Of a stretch of DNA of 64,000 nucleotides, positions 38,833 to 64,000 are shown in pieces (within the stretch, counting starts at the first letter, position 1; every line of letters starts with the position of its first letter). The position numbers and the translations under genes are program-made. Source of the stretch: a candidate division TA06 bacterium 32_111 (lineage in GTDB: Bacteria; Hydrothermota; 32-111); assembly GCA_001508335.1 (NCBI GenBank), contig LGFX01000004.1:1646-65645 (forward strand). Reading direction: 5' to 3'. A model generated the notes under the pieces. The model was given only the letters and a program-made list of their open reading frames with translations. It was not told the origin of the DNA and did not search any database.

Positions 38833-38850
38833 TATAGATAGAGGTGAAAA

Positions 38851-42135: not shown

Positions 42136-42151
42136 TTTTATAGGAGTAAAT

Positions 42152-44560: not shown

Positions 44561-44570
44561 GGAGGAAAAA

Positions 44571-45122: not shown

Positions 45123-45133
45123 GGAGGTAATAA

Positions 45134-46901: not shown

Positions 46902-47946
46902 AATAACTACTTTAACACCTATATTTATACAAGGAGATAATTCAAAAAATCTTTCAATATTTACAGATTTTATTTTATCAGACAATTTTATAAATATAAT
47001 TGATAAAAGGGATTTAGAGAATATTTTTACTGAGAATGAACATCTATTAAATATATACATGAAAGAAGTTGAAAAAGGGACAAATCTTCAGGATTTTTTT
47101 AAAAAAAACAAAATAGATATAGAAAAAATCAGAATAATAAAATCTATCCCCTATGATAAAGAACATTTTTCTGGTAACGAAATTTTAACTTTTGTTTCAG
47201 TAAATGGTAAACCTTATATACCTGGATCTTCTCTTAAGGGAGCAATAAGAACAACATTTTTTAAATTTTTAGAAGATACTCTTAATACAACAGTTAGCGA
47301 AATTACTTATGAAAGAAGAGTTAATTTTAATAATATTGAGAAAAGACTTTTTCCTAAAATTGAAAAAAAGGATTTATTTAGTTTTTTAAGCATTTCAGAT
47401 AGTAATCCATTTAAAAGTACAGATTTATTTATAAAAAGTGTTAAATCGGTAAATATTTTTAATCAAAGACATGAAGAGGGAATTCCTATAAACATTGAAT
47501 GTATTAAAGAGAATTCAACAACAGAATTCTCTATAGATATTAAAAGAGTATCTAATATGAAAAATAATAAAATATTATTAAATGCAGAAACGTTATATGA
47601 AGCGATAAATCATTTTTCTAAAATTCAAATTGTTAAGGAACTTGAAAAATTACCCAAGGAAAATCTTTTTTTAGAAACAAGAAATTTTTATGAATCTATT
47701 TTAAAAGAAATTGAAAATAATGAAAATAAGAAAATTTTTATTAGAATTGGAAAGTATACTGGTATTTTATCTAAAACAATCTTAAACCTATTAGATCAAA
47801 ATGTTAGAATTAATTTTATCAAAAATAATTTTAAAAATTTTAAAGAAAATAATGAAAAATTTTTTCCAAAATCAAGGTTGAAATACTATATAGGAGAAAA
47901 AGAAAGGTTTGACTTTGGTTGGATTGTTATGGAGGAGATAAAATGA
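46888..47946 (+). CDS. csm5: Csm5 (Cas7-family RAMP)
   Basis: GKPYIPGSSLKGAIRT and a C-terminal GKYTG...FGW motif. The gene order supports the call. Confidence 0.85.
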   Translation: MKKYKITTLTPIFIQGDNSKNLSIFTDFILSDNFINIIDKRDLENIFTENEHLLNIYMKEVEKGTNLQDFFKKNKIDIEKIRIIKSIPYDKEHFSGNEILTFVSVNGKPYIPGSSLKGAIRTTFFKFLEDTLNTTVSEITYERRVNFNNIEKRLFPKIEKKDLFSFLSISDSNPFKSTDLFIKSVKSVNIFNQRHEEGIPINIECIKENSTTEFSIDIKRVSNMKNNKILLNAETLYEAINHFSKIQIVKELEKLPKENLFLETRNFYESILKEIENNENKKIFIRIGKYTGILSKTILNLLDQNVRINFIKNNFKNFKENNEKFFPKSRLKYYIGEKERFDFGWIVMEEIK

Positions 47947-49301: not shown

Positions 49302-49377
49302 TAAGATAAACTTTATATACATTTTTGATTCATTAGATATGCGACTTAAGTTTTATAAAATTACATAGGAGGATTTT

Positions 49378-51405
49378 ATGGATTATTATTTCTTCATTGA
49401 TGAAACTGGAAGTTTTAACCATTTTAGTACTAGAGAAAAAAGAAGAATTTCAAGAGTTGGAGGATATGTATGTAATAATGATAATAAAAAAAAAATATAT
49501 GAAAATTTAATTAGACTAAGAAATGAGAAAAACTTAGAAACGCTCCATTTTAGAGAACTAATATTTGATAAAAAAGAAGTAATTGAAGAAGCAATACAAG
49601 AAAATAAGAATAATATAATATTTTCTTTTATTTCTGTTGGGGTTCCTTTAATAATTATTCATCCACAGCAATATTATATAGAATGCCTTCTTGCAGTTTT
49701 AATTGAAAGTATAGAAAAATTGTTAAAAAATGTAAATGATGTGGATTCAATAAATATAGAAATAGCTTATAGAAGACATATTCTTGAAGAAATTGATGGG
49801 AATCGATTAATTGATAATGGAACAGTGATTGAATTATATAGAAGTTACGATAAGATAATTGAATACGAAATAAAGAAAATCTTAAGCAAAAAAATAAAAA
49901 AAATCAATTTAAATGTTTCTTTATTGAATGCTAATAGAAACGAAAATATTCAATTTGCAGATATTATTATCGGTTGTTTAAATAATGCAGAACTAAAAAC
50001 AAATTTTGATAGAGATTTATCATTACGAGTTGATGTTGTAAAAGCTTATGAAAGATATTTTTCAGATAATATTAAAACTTTAATGAAATCATTAGTCAAA
50101 GAAGGTATGTTTAATGATGCCATAAAATATGCATTTGTTTATAAAAATGATAAAAAATTACAAAAATTATCTGAAGAGATTTTAAACAAACATCTTATAG
50201 AAAAACTTGAACAAGGAACATTTAGTGAACAAGACTTTTTATCTATCGAATATTTTTTACAAGAACTTAGCGATAATGATAATTTGATGTACTCAGAGAA
50301 TATTAGTAAATTAAAAGATATTTCTAATAACATCTTAGAAACCTTTAATAATAAAGACAATAAAAATTATTTAAGAATAAAAGAAAAATGTTTGTATATT
50401 TTAATGAATTGGGAAACACATACAGGAAATACATGCGAAAATTATAAAAATACTTATGCCTTTGAATATGAAAACTTTTTAATTAACGAAGGATCTAACA
50501 TTTTCAAAAATATACCAGAAAAAATTATAACTCAATATGAAACAATTTTAAGAACTATTCAAACATACTATTTTAATTCATTCAAATTTGAGGAAGCTAT
50601 AGAAAAGTTGGAAGGATACATTGATAAATATGAAACTTTTATTGATGCATTTAAAAATAAACAAAATGAAGAACAGATAAAAGACGATATTATGGCCAGA
50701 CTTTATGGAACGATTGGACAATCATATGCATTTTTGGGAAGTTTAAATAATGACATATATAAATTAAAGGAAGCTAAGGAATATTTATTATTAGATTTAA
50801 ATAATATTTGTAAGAGTAATAAATATTATGCACAAGGATTAAGTTTTTTAATAACACTTTTATGGGAATTGGAAGAAATTCAAGAAATAGAAGAAAATTT
50901 ATCTTCTTATTATGGTATTAAAAAAAACGAAAATGATATAAAAAATTTCTTAATTCAAAATAAAGAAAAATTGAGTAATTTTCAAGTTTTAGATTTTATT
51001 AGATACATTAATCTTTTTGAAAAGAAAAAAGGAAAATTGTTAAGTGATTTAGAAATTGATGAATTAAAAAATTATTTTTTTCGAAAAGAAAATTACTACC
51101 CTGTGAATTTGATTTTAAAATGGATTTCAATTTTTTATTTGGATAGAAACAACCAAAAAGTTGCGATTGAATTGCTTAATAAAAAAGTTAAAAGTTTTGA
51201 AATTATACAAGAAAATTTTTTTAATACTCTATTTGAAACTAATCGCTTGTTATTGTTAAATTATTTAGACCAAAACGTTATAAATAAATTAATATCAAAA
51301 ATTGATAAAATAGAAATTGAATTACTAAAAAATAAGGCTTTAAAACTTATGAAAGAAAAAGATTATAGAAAAATTGCAAAATTTTTACCATACTATTATG
51401 GATAA
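49378..51405 (+). CDS. DUF3800-like N-terminal domain fused to a long helical/TPR-like region, embedded in the cas locus
   Basis: It has RBS AGGAGG. The N-terminus YYFFIDETGSF...ETLHFRELI...NIQFADIIIGCL matches the DESG / H / QxAD signature of DUF3800. The C-terminal ~440 aa are helical repeats (for example DIMARLYGTIGQSYAFLGSLNNDIYKLKEAKEYL). Confidence 0.55.
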   Translation: MDYYFFIDETGSFNHFSTREKRRISRVGGYVCNNDNKKKIYENLIRLRNEKNLETLHFRELIFDKKEVIEEAIQENKNNIIFSFISVGVPLIIIHPQQYYIECLLAVLIESIEKLLKNVNDVDSINIEIAYRRHILEEIDGNRLIDNGTVIELYRSYDKIIEYEIKKILSKKIKKINLNVSLLNANRNENIQFADIIIGCLNNAELKTNFDRDLSLRVDVVKAYERYFSDNIKTLMKSLVKEGMFNDAIKYAFVYKNDKKLQKLSEEILNKHLIEKLEQGTFSEQDFLSIEYFLQELSDNDNLMYSENISKLKDISNNILETFNNKDNKNYLRIKEKCLYILMNWETHTGNTCENYKNTYAFEYENFLINEGSNIFKNIPEKIITQYETILRTIQTYYFNSFKFEEAIEKLEGYIDKYETFIDAFKNKQNEEQIKDDIMARLYGTIGQSYAFLGSLNNDIYKLKEAKEYLLLDLNNICKSNKYYAQGLSFLITLLWELEEIQEIEENLSSYYGIKKNENDIKNFLIQNKEKLSNFQVLDFIRYINLFEKKKGKLLSDLEIDELKNYFFRKENYYPVNLILKWISIFYLDRNNQKVAIELLNKKVKSFEIIQENFFNTLFETNRLLLLNYLDQNVINKLISKIDKIEIELLKNKALKLMKEKDYRKIAKFLPYYYG

Positions 51406-51962
51406 AAGAGTTAAAGATTTATTTCCTTGTCCTAAAAATTCTACTAGCAAAATGCTATAATATTTTTTAACACTTAATTTAGCATTTTTTTGTAATAAGA
51501 AAGAAAAATCTTATTTAATCTCATTCAACATAAAATTTATTAAATTAAATGTTGAGTTTTTTTGTTTTACTACAATATTATCACAACCATAATTATTATT
51601 AAAAAGTTATTATCTATAAGCAATTTTTTATTTAATTGTCTAATTTAGAATTTTAAATAATAAAATATAGTTCTAATAAATTACCATTTATTAATTATAT
51701 AAAAACTAAAGTAAAATTAAGGTGTTAGTTGTTGTAGAAAATAATTAACTTTATCATAAAATTATAATTTTCGATAATAATAGAAATTCTATTTTTAATA
51801 TAAATGTCAAATGAATCTTTAAAAAATTTTTTTGAAAGTTTTTTAAAGAATAATAAATTAATCTAAAAATTCATAACTTGAATTAATTTTTATTAAATCT
51901 TCAAGAATTCATTCTTTTAAAATTTCCAAATATTTACATTTATTATTATAAAAGGAGTTGAT

Positions 51963-52454
51963 GTGGAAATAATATATACTGGTAGTTTGGTTGGCGATTT
52001 CATGTTTTGTAAAAGGAAATTTTGGCTTATTTCAAGGGGGATAATGAGTGATAATAAAAATGAAGATCTTATTATAGGAAAGATGATAAATGAGCAGAGT
52101 TATCCGAGAGAAGAGAGAGAAATTCTTTTAGGTAAAAATCTTATAGATTTTATAGGTGATGATGGGAAAATTCATGAAATAAAGAAATCTTCTTCATTTA
52201 TTGAGACACACACTATGCAGTTAAAATTTTATTTATACATATATAAAAAAGTTTTTGGAAAGAAAATTGGTGGAGTTCTTAATTTTCCTGAAGAGAAAAA
52301 AGTTGTTGAAGTAAATTTAACTGATGAGGATGAAAAAAATATTGATAATTTACTTTTAGAAATGAAAAAAATTGAAGACGATGGAAAAGCACCAGAACTT
52401 TCAGAGATGTATAAATGTAAAAAATGTTCTCTTTTGGCTATATGTAGGGGGTAG
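51963..52454 (+). CDS. cas4: Cas4 (RecB-like nuclease with a 4-Cys Fe-S cluster)
   Basis: N-terminal FMFCKRKFWL Cys, the core motif IDFIGDDGKIHEIKKS (D..ExK) and C-terminal CKKCSLLAIC. It has a GTG start with RBS AAGGAG. Confidence 0.85.
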   Translation: MEIIYTGSLVGDFMFCKRKFWLISRGIMSDNKNEDLIIGKMINEQSYPREEREILLGKNLIDFIGDDGKIHEIKKSSSFIETHTMQLKFYLYIYKKVFGKKIGGVLNFPEEKKVVEVNLTDEDEKNIDNLLLEMKKIEDDGKAPELSEMYKCKKCSLLAICRG

Positions 52455-52457
52455 TAT

Positions 52458-53447
52458 ATGGATAAAAATTATTACATTTTATCGAATGGTAGATTAAAAA
52501 GAAAAAATAATACTATTTATTTTGAAAGTCAAAATGGAGAGGAATCGATTCCAGTAGAAAAAATAGAGAATCTTTATTTGTTTGGTAATATAGATTTGAA
52601 TACACAATTAATAAATATAGCCGCTGGGTATCAAGTTCCAATACATTTTTTTAGTTATTATGGTTATTACACTGGAACTTTTTTCCCTATGGATAGAACA
52701 GTCTCTGGTAAACTACTTTTATGTCAAATTGAACATCATAAAAACAAAGAACAAAGATTATTTATTGCCAGTTCAATAGTAAAAGGAAGTGCAAACAACA
52801 TTCTTAATGTTTTACAATATTATCAAAGAAGAAATGTTGATTTGAAAATAGAAATTGAAAATATTAAGTATCTTGTAAATGACCTTGAAAACAAAAATGA
52901 AATCAATGAGATTATGGCAAATGAAGCGAATATAAGAAAGATTTATTACAGTTGTTGGAATAAATGGCTTGATAAAGATTTTGAATTTTATAAAAGGAGT
53001 AAAAGACCACCAGAAGATAAGTTAAATACACTGATTTCTTTTTTGAATTCGGTTTTTTATTCAACAGTTCTTTCTGAAATTTATGTAACTCAACTCGACC
53101 CGACTATAAGTTTTTTACATGAGCCAGGTGAAAGGAGATATTCTTTATCTCTTGATATTGCAGATATTTTTAAACCAATAATAGTTGATAGATTAATTTT
53201 TTATCTTGTTAACAAACAAATGGTAGATGATTCTTGTTTCGAAGAAGAGGAAAATATATGTTTTATTAATACAAAAGGTAAAAAAATAGTTTTAAAAGAG
53301 TATGATGCTAAATTGGGAAGTACTTTTTATTATAAGAAGATGGAAAAATATATATCATACAGAATGTTGATCAGAGTCGAATGTTATAAGTTGATAAAAC
53401 ATATATTGGGAGTTGAGATTTACAATCCATTCAGAATGGAGTGGTAA
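52458..53447 (+). CDS. cas1: Cas1 integrase (adaptation module of the type III locus)
   Basis: NEANIRKIYY...NTLISFLNSVFYSTVLSEIYVTQLDPTISFLHEPGERRYSLSLDIADIFKPIIVDRLIF, the Cas1 catalytic core. Confidence 0.92.
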   Translation: MDKNYYILSNGRLKRKNNTIYFESQNGEESIPVEKIENLYLFGNIDLNTQLINIAAGYQVPIHFFSYYGYYTGTFFPMDRTVSGKLLLCQIEHHKNKEQRLFIASSIVKGSANNILNVLQYYQRRNVDLKIEIENIKYLVNDLENKNEINEIMANEANIRKIYYSCWNKWLDKDFEFYKRSKRPPEDKLNTLISFLNSVFYSTVLSEIYVTQLDPTISFLHEPGERRYSLSLDIADIFKPIIVDRLIFYLVNKQMVDDSCFEEEENICFINTKGKKIVLKEYDAKLGSTFYYKKMEKYISYRMLIRVECYKLIKHILGVEIYNPFRMEW

Positions 53448-53449
53448 AA

Positions 53450-53719
53450 ATGTATGTGATTGTTGTTTATGATATAAATGAAAAAAGAGTTGCAAAATTT
53501 CATAAGTTCTTAAAAAGATATCTGATTTGGGTTCAAAGATCAGTTTTTGAGGGAGAATTGACAGAATCAGAGTTAAGAAGTATAAAAAATTTTTTTAATT
53601 CAAATTGTAAATTATCAGAAGATAGTATGATAATTTATTTTATTAGAGATAAAAAATGGATTTACAGAGAACTCCATGGCATCGGACTAAAACCTGAAGA
53701 TATGGATAATTTTTTATAA
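53450..53719 (+). CDS. cas2: Cas2
   Basis: MYVIVVYDINEKRVAKFHKFLKRYLIWVQRSVFEGEL. The track start is the GTG at 53441. I prefer the ATG at 53450, which follows RBS GGAG. Confidence 0.9.
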   Translation: MYVIVVYDINEKRVAKFHKFLKRYLIWVQRSVFEGELTESELRSIKNFFNSNCKLSEDSMIIYFIRDKKWIYRELHGIGLKPEDMDNFL

Positions 53720-54892
53720 GATTTCCTTTATAATATTATCGTAATCATCCTGTGCCTGCCTTACCTCTTTTTTAAGTTCATTTAGAATTTTTTCACTTAC
53801 AAGTTTTTTTGTCTTTCTTATTTTTCTCAATATTAGAAAAAAAGTAACTGAAAAGATAATTAGTAAAAGGCCGATTATAAATCTTTCTGAATTAAAGAGA
53901 AAGAAAAAACTTGCTATTAAAAAGGAAAGAGATAAAATTACAAAAAAAGTTGTAATTTTAAAAATTTCAGATCCAATTTTTTCTTCAAATTCAGTGTATT
54001 TATTTTGAGCATTTCTAAGTTTTTTAAGAAAGGAATTTTGTTCATTAACTTTATTTTCTATTTTTATTCTATCGATGTATTTATATGCGAAATTTTGAAA
54101 GGTTGCTTTTTCATAGGATGATCCAGATCTTTTTATCTCTACTATGTAGTCTGTGATTATTTGGAATAAAGGGTCATTTTCATAAAAACATTCTATTCTT
54201 TTAATAGATTTTGGAACAATTATATCTTGACTTTCACCTACTAAGGTATTTTTCTTGTTAAGAAATATACTTAAAAAAGAGTTCTCTTGTAAATTTTGTG
54301 GAACCCAGTTTATAAGTATAACCTCTGAATAAGCCAATTTTGTATAATCATCTGTATTTTCTATAAAAGTTAATAATTTTTGGGATAATTCGCCTTTTAT
54401 CTGGTTCAACTCATCATTTTGAATTAAGTTACCTACTACTCGACCTCCAATATTCCCAACTATACCACCAATAATAGCGCCAATTGCAGCTCCCAAAAAA
54501 CCACCTGTATCATACCCTATAGAAGCACCAATCGAAGCTCCAGTTCCTGTGCCAGTGAAAGTTACCTTTCCCTTAAGGTGTCTTAGATATTTCATAGATG
54601 CGATAATTTCAGAAAGAGCCTGAATTGAACATACTGTGTTTATAAACTGGTTATATAAGTCAGTATTTTTTTTACCTTGTTCTAAAATAATATCATACTC
54701 TTGTCTTAACTTAGCATTATATAGAACATTATATGCTTCAAGAATTTCCTGAAATTTCTCTTTTGCTGATTCAACATCATCAGGATTTAGATCTGGATGA
54801 TATTTTTTTGCAAGAGTAATATATGCCTTTCTTATTTCCTGTTTAGTTGCATTAGGACTAATTTCCAAAATTGAATAATAATTTTTTAACAT
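53714..54892 (-). CDS. Membrane-anchored J-domain (DnaJ-like) protein with a glycine-zipper segment
   Basis: N-terminal J domain with HPD (NYYSILEISPNATKQEIRKAYITLAKKYHPDLNPDD...FQEILEAYNVL). Gly-rich hydrophobic stretch GTGTGASIGASIGYDTGGFLGAAIGAIIGGIVGNIGG. Two C-terminal TM helices. It lacks the DnaJ Zn-finger and C-terminal domains. Confidence 0.75.
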   Translation of the reverse strand: MLKNYYSILEISPNATKQEIRKAYITLAKKYHPDLNPDDVESAKEKFQEILEAYNVLYNAKLRQEYDIILEQGKKNTDLYNQFINTVCSIQALSEIIASMKYLRHLKGKVTFTGTGTGASIGASIGYDTGGFLGAAIGAIIGGIVGNIGGRVVGNLIQNDELNQIKGELSQKLLTFIENTDDYTKLAYSEVILINWVPQNLQENSFLSIFLNKKNTLVGESQDIIVPKSIKRIECFYENDPLFQIITDYIVEIKRSGSSYEKATFQNFAYKYIDRIKIENKVNEQNSFLKKLRNAQNKYTEFEEKIGSEIFKITTFFVILSLSFLIASFFFLFNSERFIIGLLLIIFSVTFFLILRKIRKTKKLVSEKILNELKKEVRQAQDDYDNIIKEIL

Positions 54893-55084: not shown

Positions 55085-56325
55085 GTCTTAATCGCACCAT
55101 TTGTGGTATGGAAACTCGTTCAAAATGGCATTATAATAGATAGATCTTCTAGGAGGTCTTAATCGCACCATTTGTGGTATGGAAACTCTATGAAGGTCGA
55201 TGAGATATTGGATACATCGAGATATAAAGGTCTTAATCGCACCATTTGTGGTATGGAAACCCTGTACTACTTTTACTAGAGCTAAGATTACGTTGTCTAA
55301 TGTCTTAATCGCACCATTTGTGGTATGGAAACCTTTATTAATAATATATTTTGAGATGTCTTTTGTTTGCGCCGTCTTAATCGCACCATTTGTGGTATGG
55401 AAACTTTCGATTGTCTCTACATTGTATTGGAGAATAAATTCAGTCTTAATCGCACCATTTGTGGTATGGAAACTTCTCGTACCTATTTGTTGTATTGTTT
55501 TTCCTACTTTCTGTCTTAATCGCACCATTTGTGGTATGGAAACGAAACCTATTAAAGACAAGCTTAGCAGCATCTGATTCCGTCTTAATCGCACCATTTG
55601 TGGTATGGAAACCTGTTTAGTTTGTATGACAATAGAGTTTTTCTATTGTCAGTCTTAATCGCACCATTTGTGGTATGGAAACAAGATGTCATTGCCATTT
55701 TGATCAGTCACTCTGATCCTTGTGTCTTAATCGCACCATTTGTGGTATGGAAACCATAATCTACATTGAATGCAATGCAAATTTCTTCGCTATTCCAGTC
55801 TTAATCGCACCATTTGTGGTATGGAAACCACGGCACACCATACACAGCAGCAGATGTATTAGATAGGTCTTAATCGCACCATTTGTGGTATGGAAACAAG
55901 GTCAGATAAATTTTGAACTTTTGATTTTCTTTCTTTCATGTCTTAATCGCACCATTTGTGGTATGGAAACCTTTCTTCAAAGGGAATAAGATTTAAATCT
56001 TTATATGATAAGTCTTAATCGCACCATTTGTGGTATGGAAACCATGGGACACCAGCCAGGTGTACCCAGAAAATTGAAGTCTTAATCGCACCATTTGTGG
56101 TATGGAAACCAATCGGCGTACAGAGCAGGTATTATGCTCTGCCCTGTATGTCTTAATCGCACCATTTGTGGTATGGAAACATTATTTTATCGCACCAATA
56201 TTCATAATCAAACCATTCTTCAGTCTTAATCGCACCATTTGTGGTATGGAAACTGGAGTATTTCTGATATAATGCTATGATTTCATTCTCTGCTGTCTTA
56301 ATCGCACCATTTGTGGTATGGGAAA
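55085..56325 (+). CRISPR. CRISPR array 2: 18 repeats (the same 31-nt repeat) and 17 spacers (36-43 nt)
   Basis: Repeat starts: 55085, 55156, 55230, 55302, 55374, 55443, 55513, 55582, 55652, 55724, 55798, 55867, 55940, 56012, 56079, 56150, 56223, 56295. The last repeat is degenerate (…GGTATGGGAAA). Confidence 0.97.
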
Positions 56326-56548
56326 TTACTTTTTGTAATATTATTCAGATTAATTTTATAAAAATTATATTAATACTATAAAAACCTTAATGATTCCCTT
56401 TAATCAATATTCTAATAATAATTTCAAAAAAGTTTTTATTTTTACAAAAAAAATGAGTTTATTTCTTTTGTAACTTTAACGCAGGAATTTATATTTTAAT
56501 AAAAAATGAAAATCTGCAAATTAACTTTTTACTTAAGATGTTATTTTA

Positions 56549-56576
56549 TTGACAAATAATAAATAAAAAATATAAT
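56549..56576 (+). promoter_or_regulatory. Sigma70-type promoter placed for a (near-)leaderless transcript of the downstream operon
   Basis: TTGACA (56549-56554), a 16-nt spacer, then TATAAT (56571-56576). The ATG at 56585 is 8 nt after the -10 element, and no Shine-Dalgarno sequence lies between. Confidence 0.45.
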
Positions 56577-56584
56577 AATTTAAA

Positions 56585-57658
56585 ATGAATATTTTATTTG
56601 ATATTTTTAAGATTAAAAAATATAAACAAGATATCGAAAACCTTAAAAAAGATAAGGAAAATTTTATTAAATTACTTAAAGGTGATATTAATTCTTTCTA
56701 TAATCTTGATAATAAGTCTTTAAAAAAGATAATCGAATCCGAAGTTGGTATAAAATTTAATCAACTGAAAGATTTAGAAGAAAAATATTTGGAAAATCAT
56801 AAAAGAAATGAAGATTTGAAAGAATATATTGAAGAAAATAATAATCGTTTGAACAAATTAAAAAATGAAATAGAAGAAAAAGAAATTTTGTTTGAAAAGA
56901 TAAAAAAATTAGAAGAAGATGAAGTAAGTTATGAAGAAAAAAGAAAACAGCTTGAAGAAAAAAAAGAAAAACTCTATTATGATAATTTAAAATATAAAGA
57001 AGAAAAAACAAAATTGAAAGAAAAGAAAAAAATTTTAGAAAGAGAAAAAGAAAAATTTAATAAAGATAGTGATCTGTTAAATAAAAGTAGAGAAAAACTT
57101 ATAAATGAAAACAAAGATTTAATAGATAAGAAAGAAAAACTTGAAAAATCAATTGAAAATTTAAAAAAAGAAAACGAAATAAAATTGCTACAAATACAAG
57201 AAATTGATAGAAATTTAGAAAGAAAAAAACAAGAAATAGAGGAATTTAACATAAAAATAAAAGAATTGACTGATAACAAAAACTCTTTAGAAAAACAAAA
57301 TAAAAGATTTAAAGAATTGTCTAAAGATAATTTAATATTGGTATTAATGGAAATTGACGTAGCAAATGGTTTCGCTTATGAATTTGCACCTCAAATTTTC
57401 AAAAGACTTTATAAAATAGATAAAGAGAGATCTATAAAGTGGATTACAGAAGTTTTAGCAAGGGATAAAAATGAACAGATTAAAATAACTGAAGAAATTT
57501 GTGCTTTGATAAATGAAGGTTTAACTTCGATTGATCAAAAAAGTAACAAGGTAGAAGAATTGTTTGCTAAAAAAATAGCATTCAAGTTTAATAAAAATTA
57601 TGAAGAACTATTGGGAGATTATATAAAAGCATGGGAGAATTATATAAATGAACAATAA
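56585..57658 (+). CDS. Long coiled-coil protein with a C-terminal globular domain (hypothetical)
   Basis: Of 357 aa, about 200 are heptad-rich K/E/L sequence. The C-terminal ~110 aa (VLMEIDVANGFAYEFAPQIFKRLYKID...) are not coiled coil. Confidence 0.6.
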   Translation: MNILFDIFKIKKYKQDIENLKKDKENFIKLLKGDINSFYNLDNKSLKKIIESEVGIKFNQLKDLEEKYLENHKRNEDLKEYIEENNNRLNKLKNEIEEKEILFEKIKKLEEDEVSYEEKRKQLEEKKEKLYYDNLKYKEEKTKLKEKKKILEREKEKFNKDSDLLNKSREKLINENKDLIDKKEKLEKSIENLKKENEIKLLQIQEIDRNLERKKQEIEEFNIKIKELTDNKNSLEKQNKRFKELSKDNLILVLMEIDVANGFAYEFAPQIFKRLYKIDKERSIKWITEVLARDKNEQIKITEEICALINEGLTSIDQKSNKVEELFAKKIAFKFNKNYEELLGDYIKAWENYINEQ

Positions 57659-58916
57659 AAATATTGGTTTGTTATATTTTCAAGATTTACAAAAAAATAT
57701 ATTTAAAAAGGTCATCAATAGTAATGATGACTTAACTTATATAAGGCGAATAGCTTCAGAATCTATTTTAGATTGGTTAAATATTATTGATTATAGACAC
57801 AATAACAAAATTAATGGTTATAAACCTTTTATTCATTTAAGGGATTCAGTAGCATATGTAAAATACCTTAATAAGATTATACTTTTTGATGCTATTAAGA
57901 ATCTAAATCTTGATCATTTTAGAGAGGGAGAAATTTTGGCAGTATTGATAACGCATGCTCATAACGATCATATTGATAAACTCCCAGCTGTTCTGGAAAA
58001 TTATCCGAACGCAAAAATAGTTATGAGTGAAATTACATTTAAGATAATTTATGAAGTGTGGAGTAGCAAAGATATGTATAGAGAAATTGAAATGTTAAAT
58101 AGAAATAAAATTTTGGTTTCTAATAATGATGAAATTGAAATAGATTATTACACTATACTATCTTATTCATCTGGACATTGTATGGGTGGTTTATCATATT
58201 TTGTTTTTAATGACGATTGGGCTGGAGGTATAGGATTTATAGGAGAGTTTACCGCTAGGGCTGTTGGAGGATTTTCTCATTCTATTCCTAAGCTTAAAAA
58301 TATAATTTCTTTGATTTTAGATGGAAAAAGTTTTAATGACGATAATCTTCTACCACAAGGTATAGCAGAATTCAACTGGGATTCTATATATAAATGTTTG
58401 TCGAGAGATTATCTAAAATGTAGAATTCCTATATTTCAAGCTTATTCTTTAGGAGCATTGCAGGAACTCTTTTTTATCTGCGCCAATGCTCTCGCTAATG
58501 GAGTAAATGATAACTTAAAAGAAATTATAAATATTGGCACAGAGAGAAAAACAATAATAACAGAAATGAAAAAATTAAAAAGTTTTGAATATGAAGTTGG
58601 ATTTTCAGAACAGAAAAGGGTTAAAGAAAATACAATTAATATTTTTACAGGAAATAACTTTAATGGTTTGTTTTATGAAATATACAATAAATATAAGGAC
58701 AGAGAGGAATTAAAATGGTTTGTTCCACAAGAAAGCAATATAATTAATTCTGATATGGAAACTTATGAAATATATACTCATCCTAGTAAGAGTGAAGTTA
58801 TAGAAATGATTTTTTCGCTCGATCCTGAGAATGTTTACTTAATAAATTCATATAATATATCTTTCAAATATAAAAATATTTTAGAAAATCTAAAATTTAA
58901 GGTGTTTTATGATTAA
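57648..58916 (+). CDS. Metallo-beta-lactamase-fold hydrolase, beta-CASP-like (candidate nuclease)
   Basis: Contains KIILFDA (motif 1), VLITHAHNDHID (HxHxDH) and SSGHCMGG (motif 3). The C-terminal YEIYTHPSKSEVIEMIFSLDPENVYLIN resembles the beta-CASP motif C region. Confidence 0.6.
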   Translation: MNNKNIGLLYFQDLQKNIFKKVINSNDDLTYIRRIASESILDWLNIIDYRHNNKINGYKPFIHLRDSVAYVKYLNKIILFDAIKNLNLDHFREGEILAVLITHAHNDHIDKLPAVLENYPNAKIVMSEITFKIIYEVWSSKDMYREIEMLNRNKILVSNNDEIEIDYYTILSYSSGHCMGGLSYFVFNDDWAGGIGFIGEFTARAVGGFSHSIPKLKNIISLILDGKSFNDDNLLPQGIAEFNWDSIYKCLSRDYLKCRIPIFQAYSLGALQELFFICANALANGVNDNLKEIINIGTERKTIITEMKKLKSFEYEVGFSEQKRVKENTINIFTGNNFNGLFYEIYNKYKDREELKWFVPQESNIINSDMETYEIYTHPSKSEVIEMIFSLDPENVYLINSYNISFKYKNILENLKFKVFYD

Positions 58917-59382
58917 TAAAATAGACATTGAATTATTGAAAAAACTAATAATTGTAATTGAAGAATATCAAAAAAAAATAGAAAAAGAGATTAGTAAATT
59001 AAAACACAAAATAGAATTTTATGAATCTTCCAAGACAGAAATAAACAAAGTTAATGTTGAAAAATTGAAGGAAACTATTGAAGAATTGAATGAAAAAATA
59101 AAAAACATAGTATATGAACATTGTAAAATTTATTCTGAAAATGGAGATGATCCGATAAAATTTTATTCTAAAATATTAAATGATGAGGTATGGAAATATC
59201 CTGACGAAGAAATTATCATTTTAAACAGAGATAAAGACCCTGTTTCTGAATATGAATATGATGGAGGTTATTCTCCATTTACTAAAGAATTTCCTGAGTT
59301 TAAATTTAAGGTTAAAAAGTTTGGTTATAAAACAAAAACAAAAATAATAATAAAAGCGCTTTTGATTCCTTTAGATAATTAA
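58909..59382 (+). CDS. Hypothetical protein, N-terminal coiled coil plus a small C-terminal domain
   Basis: A 157-aa ORF that overlaps the previous gene by 8 nt. I recognise no family. Confidence 0.5.
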   Translation: MINKIDIELLKKLIIVIEEYQKKIEKEISKLKHKIEFYESSKTEINKVNVEKLKETIEELNEKIKNIVYEHCKIYSENGDDPIKFYSKILNDEVWKYPDEEIIILNRDKDPVSEYEYDGGYSPFTKEFPEFKFKVKKFGYKTKTKIIIKALLIPLDN

Positions 59383-59400
59383 AAAAAGTAAGGGGCCAAA

Positions 59401-60180
59401 ATGGATGAAATTAAAATTGATGATGTAAAATTTCAAGAAAAAAAAGAAGAACTAGCAGATTTGTTGAAAAGACTAAAAGAAAAGATAGAAATTGCTGAAA
59501 AACATAACGTTGAAAATTTTGATTTAGAAAAAGAATATAATAAATATAATGATTTAATTCAAAGAATTTCTCAAAAAATTAAGGACATTTTAGAAATAGA
59601 AAAAATTAACAAAAGATTATTGAAAAAAGTGAATGAAGATACTCTTAGTCAAACAGAAATAAAAATGAAAGAATTGATGGAGTTTCAAATAGACTCACTT
59701 AAGAGTGACATTAAAAAGCTTTATAAAACAATTGAGGAAACTAAAGAAGAAAATAATAGATTAATTAATAACTTGGAGAAAAAAATAAATGATTCTGAAA
59801 ATAATATTTCTGAAAATTTCAAAAATTTTAAGTTAGAAATAAATCAAAAGACAGATGAAGGGTTTAAGAAGATAGCAAAAGAAATTGAAAATTTAAATCA
59901 GAAAATATCAATAATTAAAGATAACGAAGTTAAAATGGAAAATAAAACTAAAAATTTGGACAACAAAATATCAGCGATTAAAGATAATGAATTTAAACAG
60001 TTCAAAAATAAAAGTGAAAATCTGGAAAAAGAAATAATTAACTTAAAGAAAGAAAAAGAAGAAATTCAGAAAGATTTGTCTAAAATCAGTAAATATGTAG
60101 AATCAATTTTAAATTATAAAATTCTTAAATTTATAAAACCTTTTGAAAAAATATATGGAAAAGATAAAAGAAGTAATTGA
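59401..60180 (+). CDS. Hypothetical coiled-coil protein
   Basis: A 259-aa heptad-rich protein with internal repeats (NLNQKISIIKDNEVKMENKTKNL / DNKISAIKDNEFKQFKNKSENL). RBS AAGGGG lies upstream. Confidence 0.55.
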   Translation: MDEIKIDDVKFQEKKEELADLLKRLKEKIEIAEKHNVENFDLEKEYNKYNDLIQRISQKIKDILEIEKINKRLLKKVNEDTLSQTEIKMKELMEFQIDSLKSDIKKLYKTIEETKEENNRLINNLEKKINDSENNISENFKNFKLEINQKTDEGFKKIAKEIENLNQKISIIKDNEVKMENKTKNLDNKISAIKDNEFKQFKNKSENLEKEIINLKKEKEEIQKDLSKISKYVESILNYKILKFIKPFEKIYGKDKRSN

Positions 60181-60301
60181 AGAGAAAAAAAAAGAAATTG
60201 AAGAGAAAAAAAAAGAAAAGAAATTATTAGAAAAGAATTTAAAAAAATTAGAGGAGAAGTTTTTTAAAAAATGGAAACCAATAAAAATTATAACCAAATA
60301 A
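60155..60301 (+). CDS. Possible 48-aa coiled-coil micro-ORF bridging two genes (uncertain)
   Basis: My own translation gives MEKIKEVIEEKKKEIEEKKKEKKLLEKNLKKLEEKFFKKWKPIKIITK. It overlaps the 3' end of 59401..60180 and the 5' end of 60271..61047 in another frame, and it contains the 21-bp tandem duplication. Confidence 0.25.
   Translation: MEKIKEVIEEKKKEIEEKKKEKKLLEKNLKKLEEKFFKKWKPIKIITK
60176..60217 (+). repeat. Perfect tandem duplication, 2 x 21 bp, each unit with an A9 run
   Basis: ATTGAAGAGAAAAAAAAAGAA occurs at 60176-60196 and again at 60197-60217. Confidence 0.9.
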
Positions 60302-61047
60302 TAATTTTTTTTGAGGAAAACTCATTTTCTGTTTATAAAAGGAAGAACGAAAAAGAACAACAAATCTATATAAATATAAACGATAACATATCAAAAAGAT
60401 CGCAAATAGAACCAATAGATGTAAAGTATATATTTTTCAAAAATGAATCAGGATTTTTGAATATTGCAAGTACTGAAAAAATAGGAAAGAAAACAACTTT
60501 TTCAGAAATTATAAGTAATTATGATGATTTTGGAAAAGATTCAATAGAAACTATACTTTATGAGATTAAAAGACATATTGAATATTCTGAATCTTATAAA
60601 ATAATAATTGTTTGTGAAAAAGAGGAAGATTTTACAATTGTTAAACAAAGTTTTTCTGAAATGAATAACATAGAAAGTATTAAATTCCAACCTTTAAGTG
60701 AAAAGGATTTAGAAATATCTAAAATATATCCAATTTTAAGGAGAGAAAACAAGATCTATGAAAATAGAATCGTCCAGTTTAGAGAACCAATTAGAGTTTC
60801 TAAGGAAAAATTTTCTTATGAATTGATATCAGAAAACGAAAATATAAAACTAATTATTAAGTCGGATAGTGATTCGATTAAACGTTTTTATACTAATATA
60901 TTTATTGATTTTATTCTTAACAGGGAATATTTTTTTAAAGTTTATGAAAATGAAAATAGAAGAATAAAAGAAGAAATAGATAAAATTAAAGATTTAAATT
61001 TGAGAATAGAAAATTTATTAAAAAGACTTGATTTACTTTTTAATTAA
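60271..61047 (+). CDS. Hypothetical protein (258 aa)
   Basis: The ORF is in operon context and ends in a short coiled coil (RRIKEEIDKIKDLNLRIENLLKRL). I recognise no motifs. Confidence 0.5.
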   Translation: METNKNYNQIIIFFEENSFSVYKRKNEKEQQIYININDNISKRSQIEPIDVKYIFFKNESGFLNIASTEKIGKKTTFSEIISNYDDFGKDSIETILYEIKRHIEYSESYKIIIVCEKEEDFTIVKQSFSEMNNIESIKFQPLSEKDLEISKIYPILRRENKIYENRIVQFREPIRVSKEKFSYELISENENIKLIIKSDSDSIKRFYTNIFIDFILNREYFFKVYENENRRIKEEIDKIKDLNLRIENLLKRLDLLFN

Positions 61048-61059
61048 GGAGGGTATTTA

Positions 61060-62682
61060 ATGCCTGAAAATTTTTTTGGTATCGATTTGGGGACAACAAC
61101 TACTCTTATATCTAAAGCTAATTTGGGGCAGAATAACAAAAACTATTATTCAAATATTTTATACATCCCTCAAAAAAATGCTTCAGGGGAATTTATAGAA
61201 AGAAGAAATAAACTTGAGTCGTTTTTTTATTATTCAAATAATGGCCCTATTGTCGGGCTTGAAGCGTTTGAAAGAGGTCCAATAGAAAAAATAGAAAATT
61301 GCCTATCAAATGTCAAAAGAAAAATAGGTAAAGATGTAGTTCCTTGGGAATTTGATGGTAAAATTTTCACCCCTTCTGATGTTTCGGCACTTTATATAGA
61401 TTATTTGATTAAATATTCAATATTAAATCATGGAAAAATTGATGGCTTAACAGTTACGGTTCCAGCTTCCTTTAATATAAAACAAAAAGAACACACAATA
61501 AAAGCAATTGAAAAAGCTTTAAATATGAACTCAATTGTATTAGGTGAAGATATAAAAAATATTATACTTAGTGAACCTATCTCTGCTCTTCTTGGATATC
61601 TATCCAAGCAGATTGAAGAGGATAGAGATGATATTGCTCTTAATAAAAACCCTCTTGTTTTAGTATATGATATAGGTGGTGGAACACTTGATCTTACTAT
61701 TGTAGAGGTAAAAACAGAAAAAAATATAGTTGATAGTATAAGAGATGTAGATTTTAAAATAAAAAAAGTTAATAGATTTACAGATATTGCTGGTAGCGAT
61801 TTTGATGAAAAAATAGCAAGATATCTTCTCGAAAGATTTATTGATAATTATAAAGAACTAAATGATGTTGAATTGTCAATTCTCGATAAAAAAAGAATTA
61901 GAGCAAAATTAATAAATTTAGCTACAGATTTTAAAGAAAATGCAAATAATGCTTTTATAAGAGGAAAATCAAAATATCTAACTAATTTAGAACTTGATAT
62001 AAATAATAAAACTTATGGATTAAAAATAGAAATAGAAAAAGAAGAATTTGCTGAGATCTTAGATGATTTTATAAACAACCATGAAAGTCCTTCTAATGTT
62101 TTTAAACCTATTGAAATTTTATTAGAAAAAACGGATATAAACAAAGAAGATATAAATTATGTTTTAATGGTTGGTGGAATGTCAGAAATGCAATTGATTC
62201 AAGAAAAAATGAAAAGAGATTTCGGAGAAGATAAAGTTGTAATACCTGTAAATGAGACACAAAATATTGTTGCGTTAGGAGCAAGTATATATAGTGCTCT
62301 AAGAATTTTGGATGAGAAATTTATTTCTGAACCACCATCTGATGCATATTATTTAAAACTCAGGAATGGTTTTAAAAAAGTGTTGGGAACAAAAAATTTA
62401 TCAAAGGGCATTACTAATAAATTCAAGACAGCAAGTAGAGCAAGTAAACTTTTAATACAATTATATGCTGGTGAAGATACAAATAATGATGAACAAATAG
62501 ATGAAAATATAATAAGTACTTTTATGCCATTAAGAAGGGATTATATTGATTTAGGTAGAGAATACGAACAAGGTACGGAAGTTTCATTTATTTGTAGATA
62601 TGAAAAAGGCGAAAGAGATAGGGTTCCTCAGTATGAAATAATCATAAATAATCAAACAGTTAAAGTTCAATTAATGGAGTAA
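61060..62682 (+). CDS. Non-canonical Hsp70-like ATPase (complete actin-fold nucleotide-binding domain, short divergent C-terminus)
   Basis: Contains FGIDLGTTTTLIS (phosphate-1), LTVTVPASFNIKQKEHTIKA, ILSEPISALLGY, VLVYDIGGGTLDLTIVEV (phosphate-2), IAGSDFDEKIARYL, VLMVGGMSEMQLIQEKMKRDFG (adenosine) and IVALGASIYSA. Only about 150 aa follow the NBD. Confidence 0.8.
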   Translation: MPENFFGIDLGTTTTLISKANLGQNNKNYYSNILYIPQKNASGEFIERRNKLESFFYYSNNGPIVGLEAFERGPIEKIENCLSNVKRKIGKDVVPWEFDGKIFTPSDVSALYIDYLIKYSILNHGKIDGLTVTVPASFNIKQKEHTIKAIEKALNMNSIVLGEDIKNIILSEPISALLGYLSKQIEEDRDDIALNKNPLVLVYDIGGGTLDLTIVEVKTEKNIVDSIRDVDFKIKKVNRFTDIAGSDFDEKIARYLLERFIDNYKELNDVELSILDKKRIRAKLINLATDFKENANNAFIRGKSKYLTNLELDINNKTYGLKIEIEKEEFAEILDDFINNHESPSNVFKPIEILLEKTDINKEDINYVLMVGGMSEMQLIQEKMKRDFGEDKVVIPVNETQNIVALGASIYSALRILDEKFISEPPSDAYYLKLRNGFKKVLGTKNLSKGITNKFKTASRASKLLIQLYAGEDTNNDEQIDENIISTFMPLRRDYIDLGREYEQGTEVSFICRYEKGERDRVPQYEIIINNQTVKVQLME

Positions 62683-62684
62683 AA

Positions 62685-63899
62685 ATGAAAAATTTATTTA
62701 GTGATGATGAAACAAAAATAGATGATATGCAAGGGGATTTTAAGAATTCAAGGGCTGTTTGTGAAGAAGTATATAAATTATACACAATTCAAAATAGATA
62801 TGCTCAAGAAAAATCAAAAAAAATTATTCTTAATATGGGGCAGGATGCAGCACCGGGTTTATTACATTCAACGATAACGCAGTTAAATTTTATAAAACAA
62901 AATAAAAGAAGCCAAAAAATATTCAAAGGTATAATTAATGAACTTATTATAAACAACAATTCTGTAAAAAAATTCTTTTTAAAATATGGAATTGCAGAAA
63001 GCTACACCGAAGAAAGTAGAAAATATTTTAAGGAAATATTTTTAGATCTTAAACTAAAAAAAGAAATCGATTTTGATTATGATGATAAAAAGATATTAAG
63101 AAATCTTTTAGAAAAGCAAGATTCTTCTGAGGAGGACAAACTATTATATTATGAATTTATTAATGAATATGGTCCTCAAGAATATGAAATATTAAAGAGT
63201 CTTATTGGAAGTTTAATAGAAAAAAAGGATTATGAATCTTTTGAAAAAGCTTTGCAAATTCTTTGTAAAATTGTTGAACAAAGTGATGAGGAAATCGTTG
63301 AAAATTTTATTAAGTACTTTTTTAAATCACTTAAAACTAATCATAGAGGTTATGATAAAAAATATAAAGAAATATTAAAAAAGAATCCATTTAAAATTAA
63401 TTTAAATAACTATAAAAAAATCATATCATCATTAGAAGAATCTCATACACCAGAAAACACAACTAGGTTTGGTAAAAATAGATATATAAAAGAGATATTC
63501 TGTGCATCTATTGCTAGAATAAATGAGCAAAAGGAAAGATTTGATCTTCTGATTCAAATCAATGATTTTATTGAAGAAACAGGATATTTGCTTAAGTATT
63601 GGTTTGAAGCTATAAATAAAGACCTTGAATCAAAAAATCCTTTAGTTGAACATCTAATAGAAAGAGATATTGATGATGATGATTATATTTTTGCTTTATT
63701 TTTGCATTATTATTTAACAAAAAAATGGAGGAAAAAAATTTATATAGATCTTGAAAGAGAAATTGATGAAATGATCAAAGAACCAAGATATAGAGAATTG
63801 AACTATAAAGCTGAAACAACTGCAGATGAAGTAACCAGTCCTAAAGATTCAGAATATATATCAAATGAAACACACGAAAATTATACAGAACTTGAATAA
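62685..63899 (+). CDS. Hypothetical helical protein (404 aa)
   Basis: The ORF starts 2 nt after the Hsp70-like stop, which suggests coupling. It is all-helical in character with an acidic C-terminus. I recognise no family. Confidence 0.5.
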   Translation: MKNLFSDDETKIDDMQGDFKNSRAVCEEVYKLYTIQNRYAQEKSKKIILNMGQDAAPGLLHSTITQLNFIKQNKRSQKIFKGIINELIINNNSVKKFFLKYGIAESYTEESRKYFKEIFLDLKLKKEIDFDYDDKKILRNLLEKQDSSEEDKLLYYEFINEYGPQEYEILKSLIGSLIEKKDYESFEKALQILCKIVEQSDEEIVENFIKYFFKSLKTNHRGYDKKYKEILKKNPFKINLNNYKKIISSLEESHTPENTTRFGKNRYIKEIFCASIARINEQKERFDLLIQINDFIEETGYLLKYWFEAINKDLESKNPLVEHLIERDIDDDDYIFALFLHYYLTKKWRKKIYIDLEREIDEMIKEPRYRELNYKAETTADEVTSPKDSEYISNETHENYTELE

Positions 63900-63911
63900 T
63901 AGGAGTTAAAA

Positions 63912-64000
63912 ATGTTAAAAACCTTACTAACCTTACTTATGAATTATGGTTTTTATTTAGTAATGTTTATTTATAGTTTTCTTCTTTTATGGGAAATTTT
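63912..64000 (+). CDS. Hypothetical membrane protein, 5' fragment (runs off the window end)
   Basis: RBS AGGAG at 63901-63905, ATG at 63912, and MLKTLLTLLMNYGFYLVMFIYSFLLLWEI (a TM helix). The operon continues beyond the window. Confidence 0.4.
   Translation, partial: MLKTLLTLLMNYGFYLVMFIYSFLLLWEI

Follow-up and report, generated by a model that had tools for sequence, protein, structure and literature searches.

A rare operon encoding a lidless Hsp70-type ATPase and a beta-CASP enzyme, a candidate defence system in a Hydrothermota bacterium

A twelve-gene operon and its products

The 64,000-nucleotide stretch of DNA analysed here, hereafter the window, comes from the candidate division TA06 bacterium 32_111 of the Hydrothermota (contig LGFX01000004.1 of assembly GCA_001508335.1, positions 1,646 to 65,645). 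Its last part is taken up by an operon encoding an Hsp70-type ATPase that lacks a lid, a beta-CASP enzyme of the metallo-beta-lactamase (MBL) fold, a helical solenoid, several coiled-coil proteins and a ZorAB-like membrane module. The operon comprises 12 co-directional genes on the plus strand, nine in the window (56585-64000) and three beyond the window edge; its genes are labelled g1 to g10 plus g4b (Table 1), and L numbers denote the loci or contigs compared. The stretch 56585-64000 is identical in three public assemblies (L001-L003), and g8 to g10 were read from L001. An earlier, sequence-only reading of this DNA had listed eight co-directional open reading frames (ORFs) from 56585, each joined to the next by an overlap or by 18 nt or less. 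Their common direction stands, while the count rises to nine in the window with the overlooked g4b. The spacing claim does not hold, as g4 and g5 are separated by 90 nt, a distance occupied by g4b. With g4b left aside, the junctions from g1 to g8 measure -11, -8, +18, +90, +12, +2 and +12 nt. Beyond the window g8 and g9 are 3 nt apart and g9 and g10 are 2 nt apart, followed by an intergenic gap and unrelated genes; the operon, whose end had been placed beyond the window, thus closes after g8, g9 and g10.

A perfect TTGACA-16-TATAAT element precedes g1 and is the only 12/12 match in the region. The sequence seen earlier as a single consensus promoter is present, although consensus matches as a class occur in this AT-rich DNA only at the frequency expected from shuffled sequence. 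No Shine-Dalgarno sequence precedes g1, which is thus possibly translated from a leaderless mRNA. A simple scan detected no internal terminator in the operon, and an Rfam scan of the window returned nothing at gathering thresholds. The AT-rich composition noted before was confirmed: GC content is 0.19-0.26 in the operon, against 0.32-0.39 in the downstream fumarase and POR genes and 0.35-0.38 between 6 and 16 kb in the window.

The second gene, g2, matches Pfam Lactamase_B (3e-6). A profile of its family, built from nine members, matches aCPSF1 (PH1404)/FttA, CPSF73 and INTS11 at 1e-22 to 1e-17, type VII CRISPR Cas14 at 8e-12 and SNM1/Artemis at ~1e-8. The profile alignment (query 92-307) extends across the beta-CASP insert of both aCPSF1 and CPSF73, and the metal motifs are intact (D81, H103xH105xD107H108, H177, E200, H378), in agreement with the earlier description of an MBL enzyme with an HxHxDH motif and a beta-CASP part. 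D81, H103, H105, D107, H108, H177 and H378 are invariant among the nine sequences, and the GDF/GEF position is Asp or Glu (E200 in g2). In beta-CASP motif A the homologues have Glu and g2 has Asp; the motif B His is the invariant H378. The g2 family thereby shares MBL motifs 1-4, as well as motifs A and B of the beta-CASP part, with the beta-CASP nucleases aCPSF1/FttA, CPSF73, INTS11, RNase J, SNM1/Artemis and Cas14. In contrast to these relatives, the g2 family consists of stand-alone proteins of ~420-450 aa without KH or other RNA-binding domains. Unlike Cas14, g2 is accompanied by no guided complex containing CRISPR RNA, and its partners A, C and D are unique to the cassette described below. 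Motif C is His in the RNA-acting clades and Val in the SNM1/Artemis clade. The closest relatives of g2 cut RNA, but its motif C appears to resemble neither the RNA nor the DNA clade cleanly. In the cassette, g2 is the predicted effector nuclease.

The product of g6 matches Pfam HSP70 at 1e-25, over the nucleotide-binding domain only (profile positions 85-373 of 599). In an AlphaFold2 (AF2) model with a mean local confidence (pLDDT) of 90.6 and a predicted template-modelling score (pTM) of 0.89, a nucleotide-binding domain (residues 1-418) is followed by an eight-stranded beta substrate-binding domain (429-538), after which the chain ends; the alpha-helical lid is absent. The model superposes best on DnaK in its ATP-bound, domain-docked state (4b9q, TM-score 0.73; DnaK match at 1e-30). 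The earlier description of an Hsp70-like protein with its nucleotide-binding motifs kept and a short C-terminus is thus borne out. D9, K86, E172, D204 and the GGGT stretch G206-T209 are invariant across 29 members of the g6 family. With DnaK/Hsp70 proteins, including the short-lid HscC, g6 shares the full nucleotide-binding domain, the catalytic Asp/Lys/Glu and the interdomain linker, and its beta-sandwich substrate-binding domain docks as in ATP-bound DnaK. Unlike DnaK, it is lidless and invariably accompanied by genes for the beta-CASP enzyme and the solenoid protein G; its identity to DnaK is ~20%.

Scores against family models place g6 far from the housekeeping chaperones, with 95.9 bits against the DnaK equivalog TIGR02350 (cut-off 822.6) and 84 bits against HscA (cut-off 709). 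Its family forms a distinct clade of ~85 clusters of 520-570-aa proteins. Thus, g6 is a member of the Hsp70 family but not DnaK. Residues 195-259 partially match the PADLOC model PDC-M61B at 1e-4, and no other PDC-M61 component matches in the operon. It had been argued that this is not the housekeeping dnaK operon, and the equivalog scores, the missing lid and the gene context all disagree with DnaK. Neither grpE nor hrcA lies near g6, as had been stated; the accompanying claim that dnaJ is missing too does not stand, since a J-domain gene, the sole one, is found on the opposite strand 1.7 kb away.

Directly 3' of g6, g7 encodes a protein modelled as all-helical (pLDDT 61; 80-90 in the N-terminal half). 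The model matches only ARM/HEAT solenoids (importin-alpha, CAND1, Vac8), at E ~8e-3 and a TM-score of ~0.3. In all cassettes the corresponding gene, G, directly follows the Hsp70-like gene. An exhaustive profile search of 1.84 billion representative proteins returned 48 clusters of the G family (E < 1e-3), nearly all of 380-415 aa; word-indexed searches with g7 alone or as a profile had given just five proteins, and the census figure is taken from the exhaustive search. Longer Hsp70-like proteins (750-915 aa) were considered as Hsp70-G fusions and rejected, as the G profile matches nothing in them. Searches of PDB sequences with A, G, E and g8 gave only coiled-coil or designed-repeat noise.

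Several coiled-coil proteins had been predicted, and heptad-like coverage reaches 35% in g1, 48% in g3 and 90% in g4. The first, g1 (protein A), has a coiled coil at its N-terminus and a conserved helical domain at its C-terminus, with E289, A292, R293 and W350 invariant, and belongs to no Pfam family. In L092 a single 707-aa protein unites A and the beta-CASP enzyme, which argues for direct contact of A with the nuclease; we infer that g1 is a partner or scaffold of the nuclease. The product of g3 (protein C) likewise has an N-terminal coiled coil (heptads over 4-78) and a conserved C-terminal domain, and it forms a BLAST cluster with L004, L090 and L091. The coiled-coil protein g4 is 259 aa long in the window, 238 aa in L088 (8420-9136) and 282 aa in L089 (8288-9136); these indels of 21 and 44 aa indicate that coiled-coil length varies between close strains. 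A 63-nt tandem repeat lies inside g4.

The small gene g4b ends in a motif, F..KW.P.(L/I)KI, that is common to ORFs of 61-87 aa at the same position in nine other cassettes, which marks it as a real gene; it is annotated as such in L002 and L088. Its neighbour g5 consists of an alpha/beta region and a C-terminal heptad helix, matches nothing in Pfam, PADLOC, NCBIfam or the PDB and has no detectable relatives outside the cassette. Strands of hhhDhG-like pattern suggested that E, the protein at the g5 position, might be a degenerate actin/Hsp70-like domain. This candidate was rejected, with an hhalign probability of 0.4% against the Hsp70-like family and no hits in a PDB profile search.

A related strain, L088 (93% identical Hsp70, roughly 5-10% nucleotide divergence), carries all twelve genes intact. 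Comparison of the window with L088 (5604-15965) yields ratios of nonsynonymous to synonymous polymorphism (pN/pS) of 0.17-0.32 for g3 (0.22), g4b (0.17), g6 (0.32) and g9, which are thus real genes under selection. The ratio is ~0.9 for g1, g5 (0.92) and g7 (0.94). The scaffold and partner proteins evolve fast, and the ATPase and the ZorB-like protein are conserved. Ratios near 0.9 in g1, g5 and g7 are as expected of specificity determinants.

Table 1. Features of the window and of the operon that crosses its end (window positions)
Feature	Position	Strand	Description
CRISPR array 1	35804-37557		24 exact copies of repeat GTCTTAATCGCACCATTTGTGGTATGGAAAC
cas locus	37840-53719		type III-A: Cas6, Cas10, Csm2-5, Csx1 (CARF-HEPN); then Cas4-like ORF, cas1, cas2
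three ORFs before cas6	37840-41410		330, 279 and 581 aa
J-domain protein	53714-54892	-	392 aa; Pfam DnaJ 2e-22, HPD present; glycine-zipper; two C-terminal transmembrane helices
CRISPR array 2	55085-56327		17 exact copies of the same repeat GTCTTAATCGCACCATTTGTGGTATGGAAAC; degenerate last repeat at 56297
promoter-like site	56549-56576	+	TTGACA-16-TATAAT; ends 8 nt ahead of the g1 ATG
g1	56585-57658	+	357 aa; cassette protein A
g2	57648-58916	+	422 aa; beta-CASP MBL-fold enzyme, predicted nuclease
g3	58909-59382	+	157 aa; cassette protein C
g4	59401-60180	+	259 aa; coiled-coil protein, cassette position D
tandem repeat in g4	59902-60036		63-nt unit
g4b	60155-60301	+	48 aa; small conserved gene, overlaps g4 end and g5 start
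g5	60271-61047	+	258 aa; cassette position E
g6	61060-62682	+	540 aa; lidless Hsp70-type ATPase
g7	62685-63899	+	404 aa; cassette protein G, helical solenoid
g8	63912-64000 in window (cut by window end)	+	full length 527 aa; ZorA-like membrane protein
g9	outside window, 3' of g8	+	240 aa; ZorB/MotB-like
g10	outside window, 3' of g9	+	234 aa

The cassette in other genomes and among defence genes

The first part of the operon, g1 to g7, is not confined to this bacterium. The order A, beta-CASP enzyme, C, D, small ORF, E, Hsp70, G and usually H (~150 aa) recurs in at least 11 other lineages, which answers the earlier call to examine conservation of the gene set. In some of these cassettes C and D are apparently fused, and the small protein is helical and ~50-70 aa long. 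The cassette occurs in Pelobacter propionicus (L004), an Aggregatilineales genome (L006), metagenome-assembled genomes (MAGs) of Chloroflexota and Anaerolineae (L008, L009, L092, L093), a deltaproteobacterial MAG (L010) and metagenomic contigs (L090, L091, L094). The same order was found in L097 starting from the G family rather than the Hsp70 family. The window fills all eight cassette positions and lacks H; sequence similarity supports g1, g2, g3, g4b, g6 and g7, and BLAST clusters join g1, g2, g3, g6 and g7 to other loci.

A genome scan with the full Hsp70-like alignment produced 80 loci, among which only L008-L010 are family members; the patterns GIDLGTTTT and VYDxGGGTL are common to ordinary DnaK, and the other 77 loci are therefore irrelevant. 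The cassette is rare yet phylogenetically scattered and horizontally mobile. The patchy distribution and AT-rich composition would also suit a module that serves a mobile element, either in anti-defence or exclusion or, with the coiled-coil proteins as adaptors, in partition or replication by an actin-like (ASKHA) apparatus. Hsp70 and ParM-type segregation ATPases share the ASKHA fold, and the vicinity of the cassette in L091 and L090 includes a Bro-N protein and a Y-family polymerase (IMS). Several observations make this explanation decidedly improbable. The gene lists of the loci examined contain no integrase, relaxase or phage structural gene, which also rules out a prophage structural module, raised earlier as a possible refutation. 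The family-specific C-terminal motif of the Hsp70 has no match among IMG/VR viral contigs, and neither the Hsp70-like nor the beta-CASP protein has a tblastn match in 72,556 PLSDB plasmids; both count as weak evidence against origin from a phage or plasmid. Moreover, the AF2 model of g6 corresponds to DnaK with its substrate-binding domain docked, rather than to an actin-like protein that forms filaments.

In L009 the cassette runs in the same direction as the flanking genes of a bacteriophage exclusion (BREX) system, BrxC on one side and a split PglX and PglZ on the other, in an insertion that also holds a HEPN-like ORF. In L093 the order is helicase, cyclase and 4TM effector of a cyclic-oligonucleotide-based antiphage signalling system (CBASS), HmaB (2e-120), cassette, HmaC (6e-69), OloA and OloB (Olokun). 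HsdS and HsdR of a type I restriction-modification (R-M) system precede the cassette in L091. In L090 a PDC-M72B protein lies ahead of the cassette and, after a 1-nt gap behind it, two dynamin-like proteins match LeoA and LeoBC of Eleos. Payne et al. used nesting between the genes of Hma, BREX and type I R-M to predict new defence systems, validated seven found in this way and note that there are rare embedded cassettes still awaiting description (bioRxiv 10.1101/2024.01.29.577857). As a predictor of defence function, embedding of this kind thus has experimental backing (bioRxiv 10.1101/2024.01.29.577857). Like the HEC/PDC candidates of that study, the cassette is nested in Hma and BREX and lies beside type I R-M. 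It differs from them in that no PADLOC v2.0.0 model from the study matches it, save for the partial PDC-M61B trace in g6; the study (bioRxiv 10.1101/2024.01.29.577857) makes no mention of Hsp70/DnaK, chaperones or MBL enzymes. The earlier suggestion of a conflict system of undescribed composition is supported by the recurrence of one gene order in unrelated bacteria, within or beside defence systems.

The same components could instead form a non-immune stress or maintenance module, acting in chaperone-assisted RNA processing or decay, or in membrane or cytoskeleton remodelling, that happens to land in variable regions. DnaK, RNase J and CPSF73 illustrate the classical housekeeping roles of Hsp70 and beta-CASP proteins, membrane remodelling likewise employs coiled-coil proteins and dynamins, and there are loci (L006 and L004) without defence neighbours as well as one (L009) with a sugar kinase beside the cassette. 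A maintenance role is nevertheless improbable for a family as rare and patchy as this one, with 48 clusters in distant phyla, a base composition atypical of the host and neighbours that differ between close strains. Repeated placement between BREX and Hma genes also speaks against it, as does the score of g6, far under the DnaK and HscA equivalog cut-offs (96 vs 822 bits for DnaK).

Further Hsp70-like and neighbouring genes were observed around these loci. In L096 (9886-15162), an Hsp70-like protein of a different family (786 aa) lies in a BREX system between PglX and PglZ, together with UvrD-like and 590-aa proteins, and Hsp70-like ATPases nested in BREX thus appear more than once. Four Hsp70-like paralogues (676, 497, 554 and 486 aa), one with a PIN_4 match within the Hsp70 region, are interleaved with unknown proteins in L095 (3948-14594), near a Phage_base_V/VgrG-like gene. 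In L094 (9492-12626, minus strand), a 1,044-aa Tubulin_2-domain protein and unknown genes adjoin the cassette on the opposite strand. This neighbour is reminiscent of the GTPase/tubulin/HSP70 conflict systems described by Kaur et al. (2020, PMC7159879), though no GTPase is seen there. On the 3' side of the operon itself, L001 (14892-17771) encodes a 175-aa ORF, a DUF4236 protein, an S-adenosylmethionine (SAM) methyltransferase with a weak match to mad2 of MADS (2e-7) and a DUF1848 protein (PADLOC RTasDUF1848 6e-43, Pfam 7e-96). These genes may include another defence-related pair. Core metabolism genes (ferredoxin, fumarase, POR) lie beyond them.

The ZorAB-like module and the CRISPR-Cas neighbourhood

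The membrane protein whose start had been noted at the window end, g8, has three transmembrane (TM) segments: TM1 (5-31), TM2 (112-141, with GILGT129) and TM3 (180-214, with S190/S191). A cytoplasmic segment follows TM1, and a coiled-coil tail of ~310 aa, with heptads over 228-503, completes the protein. All PADLOC matches of g8 are to ZorA models. Next to it, g9 combines a TM helix (6-33) carrying Asp12 with an OmpA domain (Pfam OmpA 31.0 bits against a gathering cut-off of 27.2 bits), and matches PADLOC ZorB1 at 7e-8 and MotB (6ysl) in the PDB at 3e-3. An N-terminal TM helix with an essential Asp and a C-terminal peptidoglycan-binding OmpA-like domain are the features of ZorB, and g9 has both; the defining features of ZorA and ZorB used here are those given in PMC11946911. 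Together, g8 and g9 share the topology of ZorA (three TM segments with a TM2 Thr and a TM3 Ser, coiled-coil tail), here with weak sequence support, and of ZorB (TM Asp plus OmpA). The g8 tail is shorter than the ~500-aa tail of Escherichia coli ZorA. The last gene, g10, has no recognisable enzymatic domain, and nothing in g1-g10 matches ZorC, D, E, F or G in PADLOC.

Two relationships between this trio and the cassette can be envisaged. In one, a membrane motor and a cytoplasmic nuclease complex would work together with the same logic as in Zorya, all three known types of which couple ZorAB to a nuclease-like partner (PMC11946911, PMC11890865). In the other, g1-g7 and g8-g10 are independent systems that are merely co-transcribed and uncoupled, the latter a minimal Zorya-like system with g10 as its own effector or adaptor. 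Head-to-tail defence systems are common in islands, and the complete Eleos-like pair of L090 has the corresponding position behind its cassette. The nuclease-bearing cassette stands alone, without ZorAB-like genes, in every other lineage examined. The canonical Zorya order, zorA, zorB and then the effectors (PMC11890865), is moreover reversed here, with the motor genes at the 3' end of the operon rather than the 5' end. Uncoupled systems are possible but rather unlikely. Only 12 nt separate g7 from g8, the scan for terminators found none between them, and three strain contexts (L001, L088, L089) all preserve this arrangement. Furthermore, g10 offers no recognisable effector domain, and the nuclease-like partner of ZorAB in known Zorya types could be the one supplied by the upstream cassette.

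On its 5' side the operon adjoins CRISPR array 2 of a type III-A locus, in which Csx1 is detected at 4e-41. It had accordingly been regarded as a candidate CRISPR accessory, a link that other lineages and strains do not conserve. In close relatives the left neighbour differs, being the type III-A CRISPR-Cas locus in the window and a giant mCpol (minimal CRISPR polymerase) protein in L088; in L089 the giant mCpol protein lies upstream and the cas genes lie on the right side of the cassette. This giant protein (L088 1-5208 and L089 1-5076, both minus strand) exceeds 2,200 aa and has mCpol, AAA_19/UvrD-like and TPR regions. Among assemblies that are identical across the operon, the sequence 5' of it, with array 2, differs, which points to array turnover in the population.

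An ancillary effector of the type III-A system, or of Cas10/mCpol signalling, would be switched on by cyclic oligoadenylate (cOA). The proximity to array 2 and its Cas10, Csm2-5 and Csx1 genes, the Cas10-palm-like mCpol protein beside the operon in L088 and the diversity of ancillary nucleases recruited by type III systems are in keeping with such a role. Pfam, PADLOC and NCBIfam scans detected no CARF, SAVED or other cOA-sensor domain in any of g1-g10, and neither the other 11 lineages, which show no CRISPR linkage, nor the close strains, in which the position relative to the cas genes differs, agree with it. A role as CRISPR ancillary effector is therefore highly improbable; strain comparison and absent sensor domains set the accessory reading aside, and the CRISPR link of the operon is incidental.

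Between cas2 and the leader side of array 2, 1.7 kb upstream of the operon, lies the J-domain gene mentioned above. It is neither found next to the cassette in L088 nor present among the Pfam-annotated genes listed for the other loci, and it is thus not a fixed cassette component. Speculatively, its product might be a membrane-anchored co-chaperone of g6. The three ORFs before cas6 have no PADLOC match, accompany cas6 in L089 and may be type III ancillary genes.

A candidate Hsp70-controlled nuclease system

The operon falls outside each of the systems to which it was compared, namely Zorya, CoCoNuT, the type III CRISPR ancillary effectors, DnaK/HscA and PDC-M61. It nonetheless appears, by analogy, to resemble parts of Zorya (sensor plus nuclease), CoCoNuT (Hsp70 plus HEAT) and type VII CRISPR (beta-CASP effector). 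One parallel in composition is CoCoNuT type III, which likewise combines an Hsp70-like unit, a helical-repeat module and extensive coiled coils, its CnuD protein having Hsp70-like domains and HEAT-like repeats (PMC11090510). CoCoNuT also joins BREX, type I R-M and Hma genes in superoperons, and its effector is a nuclease (PMC11090510). The differences from CoCoNuT are several. In the cassette separate genes encode the Hsp70 unit and the solenoid, the Hsp70 keeps intact ATPase motifs whereas those of CnuD are reported as degenerate (PMC11090510), and the nuclease is of the beta-CASP type, not HEPN or PD-(D/E)xK. In addition, neither a McrB-like NxD GTPase (CnuB) nor McrC/DUF2357 (CnuC) is matched by Pfam or PADLOC in the operon or 12 related loci.

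The family models of PADLOC v2.0.0 and NCBIfam r20 (June 2026) include none for the cassette proteins, and Pfam gives no significant match for g1, g5, g7 or the equivalent proteins of other loci. Full-text literature searches returned no description of the gene set. The proteins are currently annotated as "Hsp70 family protein", "MBL fold hydrolase" or hypothetical. Rarity is probably the reason why abundance-filtered screens missed the cassette.

From gene context and fold, we infer a defence function. The cassette may act against phages or plasmids, with the beta-CASP enzyme as the effector, held latent on a coiled-coil scaffold formed by A, C and D. Cas14 offers a precedent for a beta-CASP enzyme as an immune effector (PMC13069675). 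The Hsp70-type ATPase, together with the fast-evolving E and G proteins, would serve as sensor or switch. A ligand derived from infection might be bound via the open, lidless beta substrate-binding domain and the G solenoid. ATP hydrolysis would then remodel the complex, and the nuclease would be released or activated against nucleic acid, whether RNA or DNA. In the present genome, a peptidoglycan-anchored, ion-driven motor of the ZorAB type is predicted to be co-transcribed with the cassette. By analogy with the recruitment of a nuclease complex by ZorAB in Zorya, its cytoplasmic tail could relay a signal of envelope breach. The upstream membrane J-domain protein may, speculatively, stimulate the ATPase at the membrane. 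The Eleos-like dynamins at the same position in L090 fit the idea of interchangeable membrane-associated modules.

Several points weigh against this proposal. Every functional statement in it rests on context and fold, and the cassette proteins contain no recognisable sensor domain. In the nuclease, beta-CASP motif C is variable, the position after the conserved LY being His in three of the nine sequences, Ala or Ser in five and Asn in g2, which leaves substrate and activity uncertain. An Hsp70 family member could act on proteins, or on RNA as proposed for CnuD of CoCoNuT. The assignment of g4 and g5 to D and E is by position only, and the near-neutral pN/pS of g1, g5 and g7 could mean relaxed constraint. 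As for context, the brxC-pglX insertion of L009 holds an FGGY sugar kinase and a 4Fe-4S protein besides the cassette, and no clear defence neighbour is seen in L004, L006 or L092, the last having just a PIN/RHH pair nearby. The similarity of g8 to ZorA is weak (PADLOC ZorA 6e-5 to 0.016, the best value, 6e-5, being against the tail), and g8 matches neither Pfam MotA_ExbB nor NCBIfam ZorA nor ZorA in the PDB. Finally, the ZorAB-like trio is missing from all other cassette lineages examined and may thus be a separate neighbouring system.

With these points counted, we lean slightly towards regarding the cassette as an undescribed defence system that works broadly as proposed, with a scaffolded nuclease under the control of an Hsp70-type ATPase. 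A broader claim is offered only tentatively, as a possibility with the chances somewhat against it. It holds that the cassette represents an unrecognised class of immune machine, in which the Hsp70 cycle acts as an infection sensor or switch that licenses a coiled-coil-scaffolded beta-CASP nuclease and can be plugged into sensors of membrane damage. These sensors would be a ZorAB-like motor here, making a fourth Zorya-type architecture, and Eleos-like dynamins elsewhere.

If the cassette protects from phages, it would be, as far as the literature searched shows, the first immune system built on a catalytically intact Hsp70-type ATPase. Its nuclease would be a further beta-CASP immune effector beyond Cas14 of type VII CRISPR. 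A Zorya-like motor in one lineage and Eleos-like dynamins in another would then amount to a natural experiment on interchangeable sensors of envelope damage. The combination of beta-CASP nuclease and HEAT-like solenoid also resembles the eukaryotic CPSF and Integrator cleavage modules, whose nucleases CPSF73 and INTS11 likewise operate on HEAT-repeat scaffolds.

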